Shown one piece after another: positions 15,001 through 42,000 of a stretch of 64,000 nt of DNA (positions are counted from its first letter, which is position 1; each line of letters starts with the position of its first letter). This DNA is from an uncultured Gammaproteobacteria bacterium (GTDB lineage Bacteria; Pseudomonadota; Gammaproteobacteria; JABCZS01), in NCBI GenBank assembly GCA_964443025.1, contig CAYUEL010000001.1:6155-70154 (forward strand), written 5' to 3'. The position numbers are program-made.

Positions 15001-18000
15001 TTTAATCACTTTTCTATTTTTCAATACTAGGTTTTCAAACTGCAATCCCATTAATATATTCCAGTTGGGTAATTGCGATAAAGAAACATCCGTGAAATTA
15101 TCTAATGCTATTCTATCTTTATTAGGAAAAATAAATTTTAAATAAAATCTTAAATAATTATCACTTAAACGAAATACACTCAACCTTGAAGACTTACCGG
15201 ATTTAATCAACCAGGTATAATCCCTCGAAACAAAGCTTGATTCCACTAAACTATCAAGATAATCGCTGATAACACCACTTTTCTTATAATTTAATTTCTG
15301 ACAAATGCTATTAAAGTCACAGGAGCCTTCAGATAAAATCTCAACAATTTTTCTATAAACCTCACCCCTTCTTTGAAATAAGTCATGAAAAATCCTTTCA
15401 AATTCGTGAAACAATAATCCCTCTTTAATGAAACATAATTTTTTGATATTATCATCTGCATTAAACTTAGATTGAATTTGTTCTAAATACCAAGGAATTC
15501 CACCTAGCACTGATAATAATTTAAATTTTTCATAATCTGACCCCCTAAAACCTTGCTTCAATAACATGTCATTGCAATCCAGCAAAGGCAATTCCTCTAA
15601 TGTTAAGTAAAGAGAAATTCTGCCAAAAAAAGCTGTGCTACTGAGGATATTCTTTTCAATCCAAGTTGAAACCGAACCACACAATACCAATATTAACTCC
15701 GGATTCTTTTTAAATTCCATATCCCAAGCATTTTTTAATTTCCCTAAAAAGGTGGGGTCTTTAGATCCCATCCAAGATATTTCATCCAACAAAATAACCA
15801 CTCGACCTTGTTGCGTATGTCGAGCCAGTAAAGAAAATAATTCCGCCCAATCCTGGACACGCAGACCTGGAAGACCTAATTGTTTTGCTAGTTGTTGGGC
15901 AAATGCATCTTGTTGAGATTGCCGAGTGCTTCCCTTCGCAGGAGCAAGACCAGAAAATTGAAAAAAGCTGTAATCTTTGCCAAATTCCTCAATTAAACGG
16001 CTTTTGCCAATACGACGACGGCCCCGCACCACCACTAGGCTTGCACTTTGCTTATCAAATAAGCCTTTGAGTTTGGCTAACTCAGACTCTCTGCCTATAA
16101 AAGGGGCATTAGCAGGTGACATTTGATTACTCCTATTATGCACATAATAGGAAATTCTACATTATGTGCATAATATAGTCAATGGCGATATTATGCACAT
16201 AATTCAAAATTCTATATTATGTGCATAATAACTTCCGTTTGAATAACCCAATGATATTTAAGGGATAATAAGTAGTTATTTATACCCAACTGTAGTTTGA
16301 TTAGATTGAATAGGTGCTAGAGTTTCTTTATCTGAATAATCTTATCTCTAGTCTTTAGCCCGCGAATGATGATGAAAGCAGAGCAGGGGATACCGAGCTC
16401 TTTGGATAGCAACCTAATAACTTCTTTGTTAGCTTTACCATCTTCAGGAGCCACGGTTACATAAACACGAATACGTTTCTTGCCATTTTCAAGGTGCTCA
16501 ATTTTAATTCGATTAGCTGCTGCCTTTGGTGTTACACGTACATGTAAAATGTCACCAAAATCATCAAGGCTGGTAAAGAGGTCTAGTATCATCGTATCAA
16601 CAGTTTATCTTATATTGCATCGCATTTTAAGAGCATGAAGATTAAAAGCAGTCTATTCAAATATTTTAAACGCTATTACGCAAGCATGAGCCAGCGAACA
16701 TTGGTGATGAGTTAGATCTCATCTGATCGCTCCGCTCACTCACGTTCGCGGTTCCCGTAAAGGCTTGTCGTAATCTCATACGTGAGGCGCGAACGTTAGT
16801 GAGCGGGTGTGGAAAATTATAAATTTATACCTTGTTTTATGCATCAGGATTTTCTCCTCCAAGATAAGGTACATTTTCTTTTTCAGCATAATACTTATAT
16901 ATTTCAGCGAATTCCCATTCAGGTTCATAGACTTCTAGAATATCATCCATGACCGCATGTACTCTGGGGTCGTGGGTTTTGTTACACTTTGCAATTGCCG
17001 CCTCTTTTATCTCTTCCCACTGCAATTCACGCATACAAAATACAATGATTTCAAAAGGGCCTATTGTGCGGTCATAAACTAATTCAACAAAGCAGTCTAC
17101 TAAAATATCTCTATGTTTAAGATTTTTTTTTGTAAATTCAAGAATCGCTAATAAATCAGGCTCAAGATCGGGAGCGCCTCGAGTCATTGTTTCCCAGGTC
17201 TTATCTGCTTTTTTACAAAGTTCCTTAAACTCATTTACAATTGCTTCTCTTTGGTTCATTTTGGTCTCCATTTTCCACCTCGAGGTAATGCGGGTTCAGC
17301 TACCCAATGTTTTTCAATGTACTTTCCTTCTACATCAAAACCTATTTCCCTAAAGGCCTTTTCGGCTGCATACCGTGCACGTGGCCCGTGAGGTAAGTAA
17401 TGACCTGACGAGTTATCAATGTACCTTATTCTACCATGCACCAAATGCACTTCTCCCCCAGCTTGAACAGGCTCACCGTTGGCTAAATCAATATGCCCTC
17501 CCCCAGGCGTATCACGATTTTTCCCAACCACCAAACGTCCATCTTTTTTTACAACGTAGTTAAGCTTGCCAGTATAAGTTTGAAGAGCACGAACATTAAA
17601 TATATCTACCCTATCCAATTTATCCTGAGGAAATTTATTTTCAAATAACTGGGGTGCCTCTCGAGAGGGTGAAGGGGATCGGCTTGGACTTCGACCACCC
17701 CTACCTGAACCACCTGACGCTCCATGCGACGATCGTGCTTGTGGATTATTGTAAGCCTGTTGTGAGCGCAAGTAAAATGAAACACTGCGTCGGCTTGAAT
17801 CTGCATTAGCTTGTGGCAAAGACGGTAAGTACGTTCGGGTGACTGCATGGTGAGTGCCAGGATCAAAGGAAGCGTTGATAACTGATGTCACTTTCGGCGT
17901 CAAACCAGACTCAAAAATGACCTTGGGTTGAATATGAACACCACCATAAATCAAACGCATCGCTTCTTTATTGAAACTAGCGGGCACCCATAAGCATTGC

Positions 18001-39000: not shown

Positions 39001-42000
39001 ATGAATCAATGGTCGTGTAAAGAATGGAAAGTGTTTTGGTCACCGTTCCGGGCTCCGATTAAACTTCTTCGTTTTAGGATCTAAACAATCCCAATGATAA
39101 GCGTCTTCTACCCAAATGTCGGTATCGGGTTGATAATCTTTTGGATTGTCGACGGTGGCGCCGGATACGGTTCTTAATCCGCCTAAAACTTCCGGCTGTC
39201 CAAATATGTAAGTACCACAAGTGGGGCAAAATGAACGATTCACGTTGTTACCACTCGCACCCTTCACAGTATACGTCGTGCATTTTCCTTCTGCTTTTAA
39301 CGTGTCTGGTTTAACTAACATGTAAGGAAAATAAGCAGAACCTGTCGCCAGTTTACAATCACGGCAATGGCATTTACCCATCGCAATGGGTTCCTCCGTA
39401 ATTTCATAACGAACCGCTCCACAAAAACATCCACCTTTGATTGATTTAGTCATAATTTTTCCTCCAGCTCCGGTAATACCTTAAATAGATCGCCCACTAA
39501 CCCGTAATCGGCCACTTGAAAAATGGGCGCATCAGGATCTTTGTTAATAGCCACGATGATTTTAGAATCTTTCATGCCCGCCAGATGTTGAATCGCACCA
39601 CTAATACCCACGGCAATGTATAACTTAGGAGCGACAATCTTACCTGTTTGACCCACTTGATAATCATTCGGTACAAAACCTGCGTCAACGGCCGCACGGC
39701 TTGCACCCACTGCAGCATGAAGTTTATCTGCAATACGTTCCAGCATGGCAAAATTTTCTTTGCTTTGCAAACCACGACCACCGGAAATCACAATATCTGC
39801 CGTTGTTAAATCGGGACGAATCGATTGATGCGCTTCTAATTTAATAAATTCAGATAATTTTAAATCTTCAATGGTGTTAATGATAGTAATAGGCGCAGCA
39901 CTTTGCTCTGAAATATCCGATTCAAATGCCGTGGCTCTAATCGTCAATAACATATTGTTAACATTCACTTTAACTTTAATAAAAGCATTACCTGCATAAA
40001 TAGGTCTTGAGAATGTATGATCATCATGAATTTCCGTCACATCAGAAATCATCGGCCAATCTAACAGCCCGCTCACACGGGGTAAAATATTTTTACCGAA
40101 TGTATTCGCTGGCGCGAGAACATGAGTGTAATCATTCGCTAGCGCTGCTATTAATGCAGCAATATTTTCTGCTAATACATGTTTATACGCAACGTTATCG
40201 GCACATAATACTTGTTTAACACCTGCAATCTTCGCTGCTTGTTCAGCAACACTCTTACAATTTTCACCCGCAATTAATACGGTAATGTTATCGCTGAGCT
40301 TCTTTGCAGCACTGATACAATTAAATACGGAAGGATTTAACTCCTGACTATTATATTGCGCTAACAAAAATATTTTGTTCATGCATTTATCCTAATGATT
40401 CAGCCTTAAACAGGTCTTCCAATGTAATGATTTGATCGAAATACCATCTATTTATTAATTCTTCTGTAGCCCCCGATGCAGTAACAAGGATTTTATGTAC
40501 CGTTTTTTGTTTCAACGCTGGAAAGCAGGCTAATTTACGTTCAAATTCCTCTATCACACTGCTGGTAACCTTCGCTTCTGTATATTTGATTTCACACACC
40601 GTCATCACTTTATCTGCCCTATCAAAGACTAAATCAATTTGAAAACCAGGTACTTCCTTTTCCACTGAGCGATTAAAATAAACTCCTGACTTATACTGCA
40701 CTGCAGAAAACCCCAGTATTTTTGCAATGAGACTACTGCGCTTACGGCAAAATCGCTCAAACGCGTATCCTAGCCACGTGATATAACTTGCCTGGTTAAC
40801 ACCGGATGTTGGGCTATCAATAAATTCAGCGTTTTTAATGGCTTTTAATTTTGGTTTGATAAAATGAAAATAAAATTGCAAATAATGATCCGCAATGCAA
40901 TAACGTATTAAATAGCTATCATCGCTCATATTATAGGGTGTATAACTCTCTATAAAACCACATAATTCTAAGTCTTTTAAGAGTTTTGTTAAACTGCCTC
41001 CTGTTTCCACTTCAAGAAAGGCAGCAATTTCCTTTCGGGTTGCAAAGCGTTTTTTACTTAAAAACTGAATAACCTTCTTATAGTATGGATTAGTTGCCAT
41101 ACTGCTTGTAAATATTTTTTCACACTCTTGAACGAAAAAACCATTCTTAACAAAAGCATTTTTACATATGCTTAAAAATGTTGAGGAATCTTTATCCGCC
41201 CATTTTAAATATTCTGGGACACCACCAATGGTTAAGTATGCGTTCATTGTTTCTTTTATAGATCTTTCTCCCAAAAATTGCTGAGTCTCTCGAATATTAA
41301 ACTCCTGCAGAGACAACTCATATTGACTTCGATTATAAAGAGATTTCGAGTGAATGACGTTGTTAATCATAAAAGAAGGTGAGGATCCACACAATACTAA
41401 AATGAGTTGATCATTTTTTCTAAAAAAGTTATCCCAAACATATTTTAATTCTGCAATGAATTCTGTCTTATAATTTGCCAACCATTGCACTTCTTCAAAA
41501 TACAACACACAGGGCCCTTCCTTTACGGACTCATAAAGCAGTTGAAAAACGTCTGTCCAATTCTCTAATTGCAAATGTCGTAACAATGGCTCTTGCCGAT
41601 ACCCAGCAAGCTGCTCAATCACTTGTTTTATTTGACGCCCTTTAGGTTCGCCCTCTATCCCTTCAAATTTAAGCATATGATGAGAACCATAAGCATATTC
41701 CAATAACGTTGTTTTCCCTATCCTTCTTCGGCCATAAATAACAACGATTGTTGCCTCTTGCTCCTGGGTAATACTCTGCAAGACCTGCAATTCTTTCTTG
41801 CGGCCAATGAATTTTTTCGGGATTTTGGGTACGAGGTATTCCATCGCTCTACTCTGTCGAGCCAGATACTGTGAATAATATTCATATCTGGCTCAAAAGT
41901 CAAATAAAATTTGAGCCAGATATGGGTAAAAACATACCTATCTGGCTTGATAAAAATACAACCCGTTGATTATACTCAACTTTTTAAAACAGGCTCGAGC

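Follow-up and report, generated by a model that had tools for sequence, protein, structure and literature searches.

Introduction

Regulators that act on paired palindromes over their own promoter are familiar from defense modules, as in the restriction-modification controller (C) proteins with their C-boxes and in BrxR/CapW. Among AAA+ proteins, DnaA represses its own promoter through DnaA boxes, the gene for archaeal Orc1/Cdc6 adjoins ORB repeats, and haloarchaeal Orc1/Cdc6 paralogs have site specificities of their own. Here we describe two gene cassettes in a 64,000-nucleotide (nt) stretch of DNA from an uncultured Gammaproteobacteria bacterium (contig CAYUEL010000001.1, positions 6,155 to 70,154; referred to as the window). 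Each cassette consists of a single gene for an ATPase with a predicted C-terminal nuclease domain and, directly upstream, an array of inverted sites. We put at roughly 65% the probability that each is a self-contained, auto-repressed, horizontally moving single-gene module.

Like the C-protein/C-box and BrxR/CapW systems, the cassettes would pair a mobile, potentially toxic nuclease module with a regulator of its own (predicted here) whose specificity differs between families. Those systems use a separate small helix-turn-helix (HTH) protein. In the cassettes, by comparison, effector and DNA-binding domain form one protein with an attached AAA+ module, and operators of 36 bp repeat at a fixed period of 54 to 55 bp. 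With DnaA and Orc1/Cdc6, the cassettes have in common an AAA+ protein that carries a DNA-binding domain and lies beside a cognate site array, although recognition of that array is a prediction in our case. They differ in lacking an unwinding element and the context of an origin, in having palindromes over a predicted sigma-70 promoter and an added, predicted PD-(D/E)xK domain, and in their bacterial hosts and intergenic insertion sites. The combination of an NTPase and a winged helix with multiple sites in both orientations near a promoter also recalls the STAND protein MalT, with DNA binding again predicted here. MalT, however, has a LuxR-type DNA-binding domain and sensor repeats and activates other operons, whereas the sites described below occur only at the cassettes' own promoters in 64 kb.

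The gene family itself is already catalogued (PDC-S27; ATPase_2 plus DUF234; COG1672 "ATP-binding protein"). The first-pass annotation of this stretch had suggested an undescribed module, a suggestion that does not hold for the gene family, as a full-length profile match places both proteins in PADLOC PDC-S27. The family has been described as an ATPase fused to a PD-(D/E)xK domain (PMC12988326, PMC3424549). Copies of the PDC-S27 type number in the thousands in bacteria and archaea, and the family is regarded as a candidate defense system pending validation (PMC12988326); a PDC-S27-type representative gave no protection against T4, T5, or T7 in Escherichia coli B (PMC12881386). Our family search yielded 5,991 clusters at 50% identity. 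In the searchable literature, we found no description of PDC-S27 upstream operators, self-regulation, or cassette limits, and the only papers found on DUF234 concerned PD-(D/E)xK classification. The window proteins share the end-to-end profile of PDC-S27, and the upstream operator array is the feature added here.

Results

Two operators upstream of each ATPase gene

The ATPase1 gene (14662 to 16122, minus strand) encodes 486 amino acids comprising an AAA+ NTPase, a helical lid, a winged helix, and a C-terminal predicted PD-(D/E)xK domain, and the ATPase2 gene (40387 to 41844, minus strand) encodes 485 amino acids with the same architecture. For ATPase1, we chose the ATG at 16122 over the GTG of the open reading frame (ORF) list; it follows a Shine-Dalgarno AGGAG, read directly in the sequence 7 nt before it (16130 to 16134, minus strand). 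The first-pass annotation had reported a four-site array of alternating orientation directly 5' of each gene, and both arrays could be read in the sequence, each stopping 12 to 14 nt short of the ATG. In array 1, ATTATGCACATAAT or its complement starts at 16135, 16161, 16190, and 16216, with alternating orientation and gaps of 26, 29, and 26; the four copies can be read as ATTATG(CA/TG)CATAAT, and a repeat search returned a 42-nt unit with a period of 55 bp and 90% identity. Allowing up to 2 mismatches, ATTATGCACATAAT occurs 9 times versus 1.73 times expected, and none of 100 shuffles contained 9 or more copies. Array 2 consists of GAGCCAGATA at 41859 (+), 41885 (-), 41913 (+), and 41939 (-, with 1 mismatch), with gaps of 26, 28, and 26, and was returned by the repeat search as a 35-nt unit with a period of 54 bp.

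The count of GAGCCAGATA alone is weak (5 versus 2.01 expected, with 4 of 100 shuffles getting to 5), but the full palindrome patterns are far stronger than the 10-mer count and are decisive. The cassette 2 operator, AGCCAGATA-N16-TATCTGGCT, occurs exactly twice in 64 kb with up to 3 mismatches (0.01 expected), and the cassette 1 operator, GCACATAAT-N12-ATTATGTGC, likewise occurs exactly twice (0.06 expected). A sequence-independent detector of alternating four-site arrays returned these two places from the whole window and no others.

The functional unit appears to be a 36-bp palindrome, present twice per array, rather than the 10- to 14-mer. In array 1, the register that agrees with relatives (compare loci L030 and L045) is GCACATAAT-N12-ATTATGTGC, which makes the outer ATTAT of the 14-mer flanking sequence. 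The proximal operator of cassette 1 spans 16137 to 16172 (half-sites GCACATAAT at 16140 to 16148 and ATTATGTGC at 16161 to 16169; dyad at 16154/16155), and the distal operator, 55 bp from it, spans 16192 to 16227 (half-sites at 16195 to 16203 and 16216 to 16224); their arms are complementary at 15 of 18 and 14 of 18 positions. In cassette 2, the proximal operator, GAGCCAGATA-N16-TATCTGGCTC, lies at 41859 to 41894 (dyad at 41876/41877), with the distal operator 54 bp away at 41913 to 41948. The distance from operator center to ATG is 32 nt in both cassettes.

Conservation of the layout and probable selection on half-sites

Relatives comprised 10 genome loci related to ATPase2, from a single-protein query scan of genome contigs, and 80 loci from metagenomes related to ATPase1, a set later enlarged with loci from viral contigs and plasmids and with those of the closest relatives. 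Scorable upstream regions numbered 87, the two window cassettes included. A strict test, which demanded an alternating four-site array and allowed a period of 48 to 62 bp, was positive for 41 of these 87 regions, compared with 0 of 435 dinucleotide shuffles and 4 of 2,823 tiles elsewhere in the same loci, and the period was 54 or 55 bp in 39 of the 41. Under a relaxed test (one inverted pair plus at least one repeated arm), 78 of 87 regions were positive versus 21 of 261 shuffles (8%); the period was 54 to 55 bp in 68 of the 78, whereas the periods in shuffles were spread flat. About 90% of homologs elsewhere thus carry the layout, as the first-pass annotation had anticipated, and their half-sites are specific to each locus.

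Half-sites vary widely by locus (e.g., CTTACGCA, CCTCACATAAT, ATCCCCAAAT, TCACCAAAT, CTGCACAAAA, and GCCAAnTA). When aligned on their dyads, the operators are 36-bp, even-centered palindromes. At positions 3 to 11 of the half-operator, counted from the outside, the paired operators of a locus are 76 to 100% identical, and the arms agree at 74 to 100%, but most of these positions carry near-zero information between loci, the exceptions being C at position 5, A at position 11, and A-rich positions 9 and 10. The inner seven positions are far less constrained. Half-site identity is 8.35 of 10 within a locus versus 4.04 of 10 between loci. Since these positions are kept within a locus yet are nearly uninformative between loci, the alignments indicate that selection for a locus-specific recognition sequence, and not recent duplication, probably maintains them. 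In the ATPase1 clade (e.g., L030, L084, and L090), the operator center (half-operator positions 12 to 18) often reads tCGACA-NN-TGTCGa or TTGACAAATGTCGAT; this motif is semi-conserved between loci, though overall poorly palindromic, and doubles as the best -35 element in some.

The layout reaches down to about 26 to 46% identity, with examples on Desulfosarcina and Paracaedimonas plasmids and in viral-contig loci L096, L097, L102, and L108. In L103, it is visible by eye only, with a period of 56, and was missed by the detector. We rejected the idea that the layout is general beyond about 30% identity, as gut-phage-contig relatives have direct repeats after the -10 element or other palindromes. 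The Rhizobium plasmid copy has a different arrangement, and no upstream repeats were found for the haloarchaeal copy. Relatives on gut viral contigs (24 to 32% identity; L122, L125, L127, L129, and L132; L133 to L135 and L140; L141 to L153) have no 54-bp double palindrome in the upstream 130 nt and instead have other repeats located at a strong promoter, namely, AAATCACGATT twice just after the -10 element, AGAATAATTCT palindromes around the -35 element, or ACTTACGAG repeats. Two loci, L006 and L008, retain upstream arrays beside seemingly truncated genes (75 and 402 amino acids before the stop).

Predicted domain architecture of the ATPase-nucleases

A full-length alignment of ATPase1 with ATPase2 gave 28% identity (E = 1e-58). 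Both match Pfam ATPase_2 (PF01637; 1.1e-13 and 52 bits for ATPase1, 3.3e-19 and 70 bits for ATPase2, versus a gathering cutoff of 33.2) and, end to end, PADLOC PDC-S27 (PDLC04984; 6.1e-87 over residues 8 to 476 of ATPase1 and 4.3e-103 over residues 11 to 479 of ATPase2). ATPase1 has a weak match to Pfam HTH_5 (ArsR-type HTH) at residues 257 to 299, and Pfam DUF234 (PF03008) was matched by ATPase2 only, at 19.3 bits, which is under the 22.5 cutoff. DUF234 was classed as PD-(D/E)xK by Steczkiewicz et al. in 2012 (PMC3424549). Neither protein had a family match among the NCBIfam profiles.

An AF2 model of ATPase1 (pLDDT of 92) contains an AAA+ core, a helical lid, a winged helix-turn-helix (wHTH) with helices at residues 270 to 277 and 283 to 294 and a wing at 298 to 319, and a C-terminal domain with an alpha-beta-beta-beta-alpha-beta core. 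Across 54 sequences from both clades, the Walker A (G34 to K40, GRRRxGK) and Walker B (D113/E114) motifs are invariant or nearly so, and E363, D404, E418, and K420 are invariant. The best sequence-profile and fold matches to the ATPase, lid, and winged-helix part were the archaeal proteins PABY2304 (PDB 2qen) and SSO1545 (PDB 2fna), 350-amino-acid structural-genomics entries that lack the predicted C-terminal nuclease domain of the window proteins. The next fold matches were plant NLR/STAND NB-ARC modules and Orc1/Cdc6; Foldseek matches to the Orc1/Cdc6 structures 1w5t, 1fnn, and 2qby had E values of about 1e-8 to 1e-10, and NLR/STAND matched equally well. Fold comparison thus revealed an initiator-type AAA+ fold with a C-terminal winged helix.

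Co-variation of operators with the winged helix

In the ATPase1 clade (41 loci), the protein segment whose divergence correlated best with that of the operators, when the rest of the protein was controlled for, was residues 269 to 293 (partial r = 0.265; 0 of 1,000 permutations reached this value for that segment). These residues, which had been flagged by the Pfam HTH match before the co-variation analysis, cover the modeled wHTH from helix 2 through the turn to the recognition helix (helix 3). Ten of the 25 top co-varying columns fell within residues 262 to 302, which hold 32 of the 282 eligible columns (P = 9e-5). Over the turn and helix 3, loci with CTTACGCA sites have Y-(S/P)-SGGPLS-x-Y in common, and loci with ATCCGTAAA-type sites have K-S-x-GG-x-Y-x-K in common. 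The closest relatives of ATPase1 (74 to 77% identity) have TATGCACATAAT sites and those of ATPase2 (66 to 67% identity) have AGCCAGATAG sites, so that the half-site of the window protein is kept and helix 3 is nearly unchanged in both cases, and all four of these relatives lie in unrelated genomic neighborhoods. The winged-helix residues, the top columns, and the closest relatives therefore agree, in a statistical sense, with the first-pass claim that site sequence co-varies with the linked protein.

The module contains only the ATPase gene, and no other protein is shared with the array between contexts. This leaves the encoded protein as the sole candidate binder that is always present, and its winged helix probably binds its own operators. 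Secondary co-variation peaks were also observed at residues 10 to 39 and 85 to 106 of ATPase1 (W1); the latter falls on the loop and helix (H92 to 101) between beta2 and beta3, the site of the DNA-contacting insert of initiator-clade AAA+ proteins.

Promoter register and the sign of regulation

The predicted sigma-70 promoter of ATPase1 (16154 to 16182, minus strand) consists of TTGACT at 16182 to 16177, a 17-nt spacer, and TAGAAT at 16159 to 16154, while that of ATPase2 (41875 to 41903, minus strand) consists of TTGACT at 41903 to 41898, a 17-nt spacer, and TATTAT at 41880 to 41875; each agrees with the consensus at 10 of 12 positions. These best sigma-70 matches occupy an identical register on the proximal operators of the two cassettes, with one half-site in the 17-nt spacer, the -10 element at the dyad, and the other half-site over predicted positions +1 to +10. 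In cassette 2, the left half-site is within the spacer, and the right half-site, from 41868 to 41859, spans the predicted start site. The same register recurs in L003, L008, L012, L013, L022, L068, and L075, and loci with a third operator revert to it. The repeated palindromes thus overlap the predicted core promoter of their own gene.

The first-pass annotation had offered two interpretations of the sites, an initiator/iteron pair or an autoregulator/operator pair. The latter fits the inverted pairs over the promoter and appears well supported by the sequence features described above, whereas the former fails because there is no room for an unwinding element. In cassette 2, no terminator was found upstream, after etfB, so that the cassette is probably also read through from etfB.

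Autoregulation might instead be positive or signal dependent. The protein, behaving like the STAND factor MalT, would assemble on the array in the presence of ATP and a cue and would activate or de-repress its own promoter, producing a feed-forward burst of nuclease. The fold is as near to NB-ARC/STAND as to Orc/Cdc6, and in several relatives (L066, L076, L078, and L090; L017, L020, L021, and L047) the proximal operator abuts or carries the -35 element rather than covering the start site. In contrast, both window cassettes and at least 7 relatives have the classic repression geometry, with spacer and +1 lying under the proximal operator. Moreover, both predicted promoters already match the consensus at 10 of 12 positions, so an activator should be unnecessary. 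We consider positive control possible but rather improbable, and the geometry of the predicted promoters suggests that the window cassettes are auto-repressed.

Limits of the module and insertion between genes

For pairs of family genes that are 78 to 92% identical in DNA but lie in different contexts, the alignment begins at the distal operator, at its outer edge (-75 to -145), and stops a few nucleotides from the stop codon, beyond which it does not continue. The DNA alignments between the window cassettes and their closest relatives similarly extend from -108 or -106 to 23 to 54 nt before the stop. The terminal 2 to 8 residues past a conserved LL or LF motif, as well as the stop codon, vary in every context (window 40383 to 40395 and 14659 to 14667; L166 to L169), and DNA homology gives out 10 to 50 nt short of the stop. 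With tails and stops that depend on context and homology that does not reach the stop, the target may be what supplies the cassette with its stop codon.

Cassette 2 lies between etfB (41976 to 42722, minus strand; Pfam ETF), whose stop codon is 27 nt from the distal operator, and etfA (39450 to 40382, minus strand), with 4 nt from the stop of ATPase2 to the etfA ATG. TTAGGA, the conserved ribosome-binding site of etfA, doubles as the last codons (final Leu-Gly) of ATPase2. The closest EtfB relatives (76 to 77% identity; L091 to L094, four loci of two kinds) keep the neighborhood of ETF-QO, etfB, etfA, GFA, acyl-CoA dehydrogenase, and thiolase genes, and their etfB-etfA gap of 57 or 192 nt contains no ATPase gene, i.e., it is an empty site. 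Cassette 1 adjoins, with zero gap, the stop codon of a convergent dotL/traG-like gene. The empty etfB-etfA site and the limits of homology, from operator edge to stop, uphold the earlier proposal of a gene plus cis-array module that inserts between genes.

As the first-pass annotation had noted, no transposase, integrase, or terminal inverted repeat was found in the module. Furthermore, no target-site duplication was seen at the etfB/etfA junctions, and in pattern searches of the 64 kb neither window cassette had a further operator copy 3' of its gene. The features of a classical mobile element (transposase or integrase, terminal repeats, duplication, attC) are thus missing.

Arrays or solo operators without an ATPase gene of their own were found near family genes at six loci (L034, 3258 to 3345; L040, 885 to 966; L041, 3999 to 4094; L069, 5909 to 5996; L082, 5434 to 5519; L169, 4148 to 4190). 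The extra array in L034 lies directly 3' of the gene and has the half-site of the gene's own array, the orphan in L169 consists of an operator and a ribosome-binding site, and L082 has tandem paralogs with an array each. No gene remnants were detected beside the orphan arrays by tblastn at E values of up to 1. Arrays without the gene had been named at the outset as a finding that would speak against a gene-plus-array module; the few that exist near family genes look like relics of cassette turnover rather than a refutation, although they also lend something to a different explanation. The arrays could be recombination or mobilization sites on which the ATPase-nuclease assembles and then cuts or copies the cassette, much as in homing or at a transposase end, with the overlap of the promoter being secondary. 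The mobile unit has its 5' limit exactly where the outer operator ends, cassette 2 is inserted precisely between etfB and etfA with no integrase, solo arrays or operators flank some genes (L034 having one half-site on both sides), and the PD-(D/E)xK motif is invariant. Nevertheless, neither window cassette has a matching site at its 3' end, no target duplication or terminal inverted repeat was seen, and the conserved -35/-10 register would be left unexplained, making this explanation unlikely.

At similarly long odds, the array could be a platform where the Orc-like AAA+ module assembles and the PD-(D/E)xK domain copies or inserts the promoter-to-stop cassette into new intergenic sites. Such a platform would explain the 5' limit at the operator edge, the target-dependent tails and stops, the solo arrays, and the negative outcome of the single published phage assay. 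If this doubtful idea were correct, the cassette would be a selfish mobile element of a previously unrecognized kind, made of a single gene and devoid of transposase, integrase, and terminal repeats.

Discussion

The sequence comparisons show the anatomy of the cassettes, its conservation in the family, the co-variation of protein and site, the limits of the module, and the empty site, and these can be brought together under the auto-repressed module that we favor. Its parts would be two identical 36-bp palindromic operators 54 to 55 bp apart, a sigma-70 promoter, and one gene, the product of which would join an AAA+ (Orc/Cdc6- and STAND-like) ATPase and a winged helix to a C-terminal PD-(D/E)xK nuclease domain. 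The protein's own winged helix would bind the operators, most likely as one dimer per palindrome. Since the proximal operator overlies both the -35/-10 spacer and the start of transcription, its occupation would shut off the gene itself. Cooperative binding, through a tetramer or higher AAA+ assembly, would be made possible by the distal operator, which lies about five helical turns upstream. Half-site core and recognition helix would diversify together, so that paralogous cassettes in one cell, such as the two in the window, would avoid cross-regulation. Finally, the unit from operators to stop would move horizontally and land in tight intergenic gaps. In this scheme, we infer that the encoded protein is the binder and that regulation is negative, as well as the stoichiometry, what the ATPase-nuclease does in the cell, and the way in which the cassette moves.

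Several observations weigh against this reading. The Mantel result becomes borderline once all windows of the protein are scanned (50 of 1,000 permutations reach the maximum), shared ancestry is only partly controlled for in the co-variation statistics, and co-varying columns occur outside the wHTH as well. Distant relatives (24 to 30% identity) have other repeat types or none. The promoter register varies by sub-clade, with the -35 element at the operator center or abutting the right arm in some, and these registers could mean activation rather than repression. Promoter calls made by best consensus score are noisy in AT-rich DNA, for which reason we relied on recurrent registers and not on single calls. 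The orphan arrays and solo operators near family genes at six loci belong on the same side of the balance.

An origin-like element, in which an initiator-type AAA+ protein would act on cognate repeats as Orc1/Cdc6 does on ORB or a plasmid Rep on iterons, seems highly improbable to us. It would account for the fold similarity to Orc1/Cdc6, for a gene that adjoins cognate inverted sites, and for the two helices between beta2 and beta3, which occupy the position of the initiator-specific motif and coincide with the secondary co-variation peak at residues 85 to 106. However, an AT-rich unwinding element would have no space, with only about 18 bp between the two operators and 27 nt (cassette 2) or about 90 nt (cassette 1) beyond them. 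The cassettes also sit inside chromosomal operons, the sites are inverted pairs rather than direct iterons, and the protein bears a predicted nuclease domain. Neither an unwinding element nor direct iterons of the same orientation were found, and the iteron/origin interpretation is not supported.

It is just as improbable that the repeats work without the ATPase, either as nucleic-acid structures (RNA hairpins or cruciforms) or as sites for a host factor. A hairpin, too, would be compatible with compensating changes in inverted repeats, and readthrough from etfB into cassette 2 is probable, but the two hairpins of a locus need no common sequence and yet match at 8.35 of 10 half-site positions, arm mismatches have no wobble bias (26 G:T versus 39 A:C), the distal operator lies upstream of the -35 element, an Rfam search of the whole 64-kb window returned no RNA family match, and a host factor cannot account for site sequences that shift with the linked protein across phyla.

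The idea that the operators mark phage targets was also rejected, as exact operator searches of viral contigs gave two single matches for cassette 1, each internal to a coding sequence, and none for cassette 2, which is about the level of chance.

Genomic context of the cassettes

A Dot/Icm type IVB secretion cluster occupies positions 3502 to 14661 of the window (TrbI/DotG-like, DotH, DotI, DotB, DotC, DotD, IcmS, DotM, and DotL/TraG-like), and because of this cluster the host is probably a Legionellales-like intracellular bacterium. Relatives of both ATPases occur in Chlamydiae, Holosporales, Rickettsia, and Babeliales, an amoeba-symbiont gene pool. GC-rich nested inverted repeats with a REP/MITE-like look were observed in the intergenic DNA beside cassette 1 (16732 to 16806; 28-nt arms, 86% complementary) and beside the cassette of a relative (L169, 3958 to 4135). 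A minus-strand ORF (50783 to 63979; at least 4,398 codons) runs past the end of the window.

Implications

If each gene has a private pair of operators that diversifies rapidly and is read by the protein's own winged helix, binding specificity would be predictable from sequence, and a swap of the recognition helix should swap the operator. That the period stays at 54 to 55 bp while site sequences are unrelated points to a higher-order assembly of protein and DNA with a defined structure. If the proposal is correct, cloning a gene together with its native upstream DNA may leave it silenced by its own product, which would affect the interpretation of negative defense assays. The proposal would also define the mobile unit, from the operator edge to about the stop codon, as one that is able to sit within a housekeeping operon; in the window, cassette 2 splits etfB from etfA and provides the DNA just upstream of etfA.

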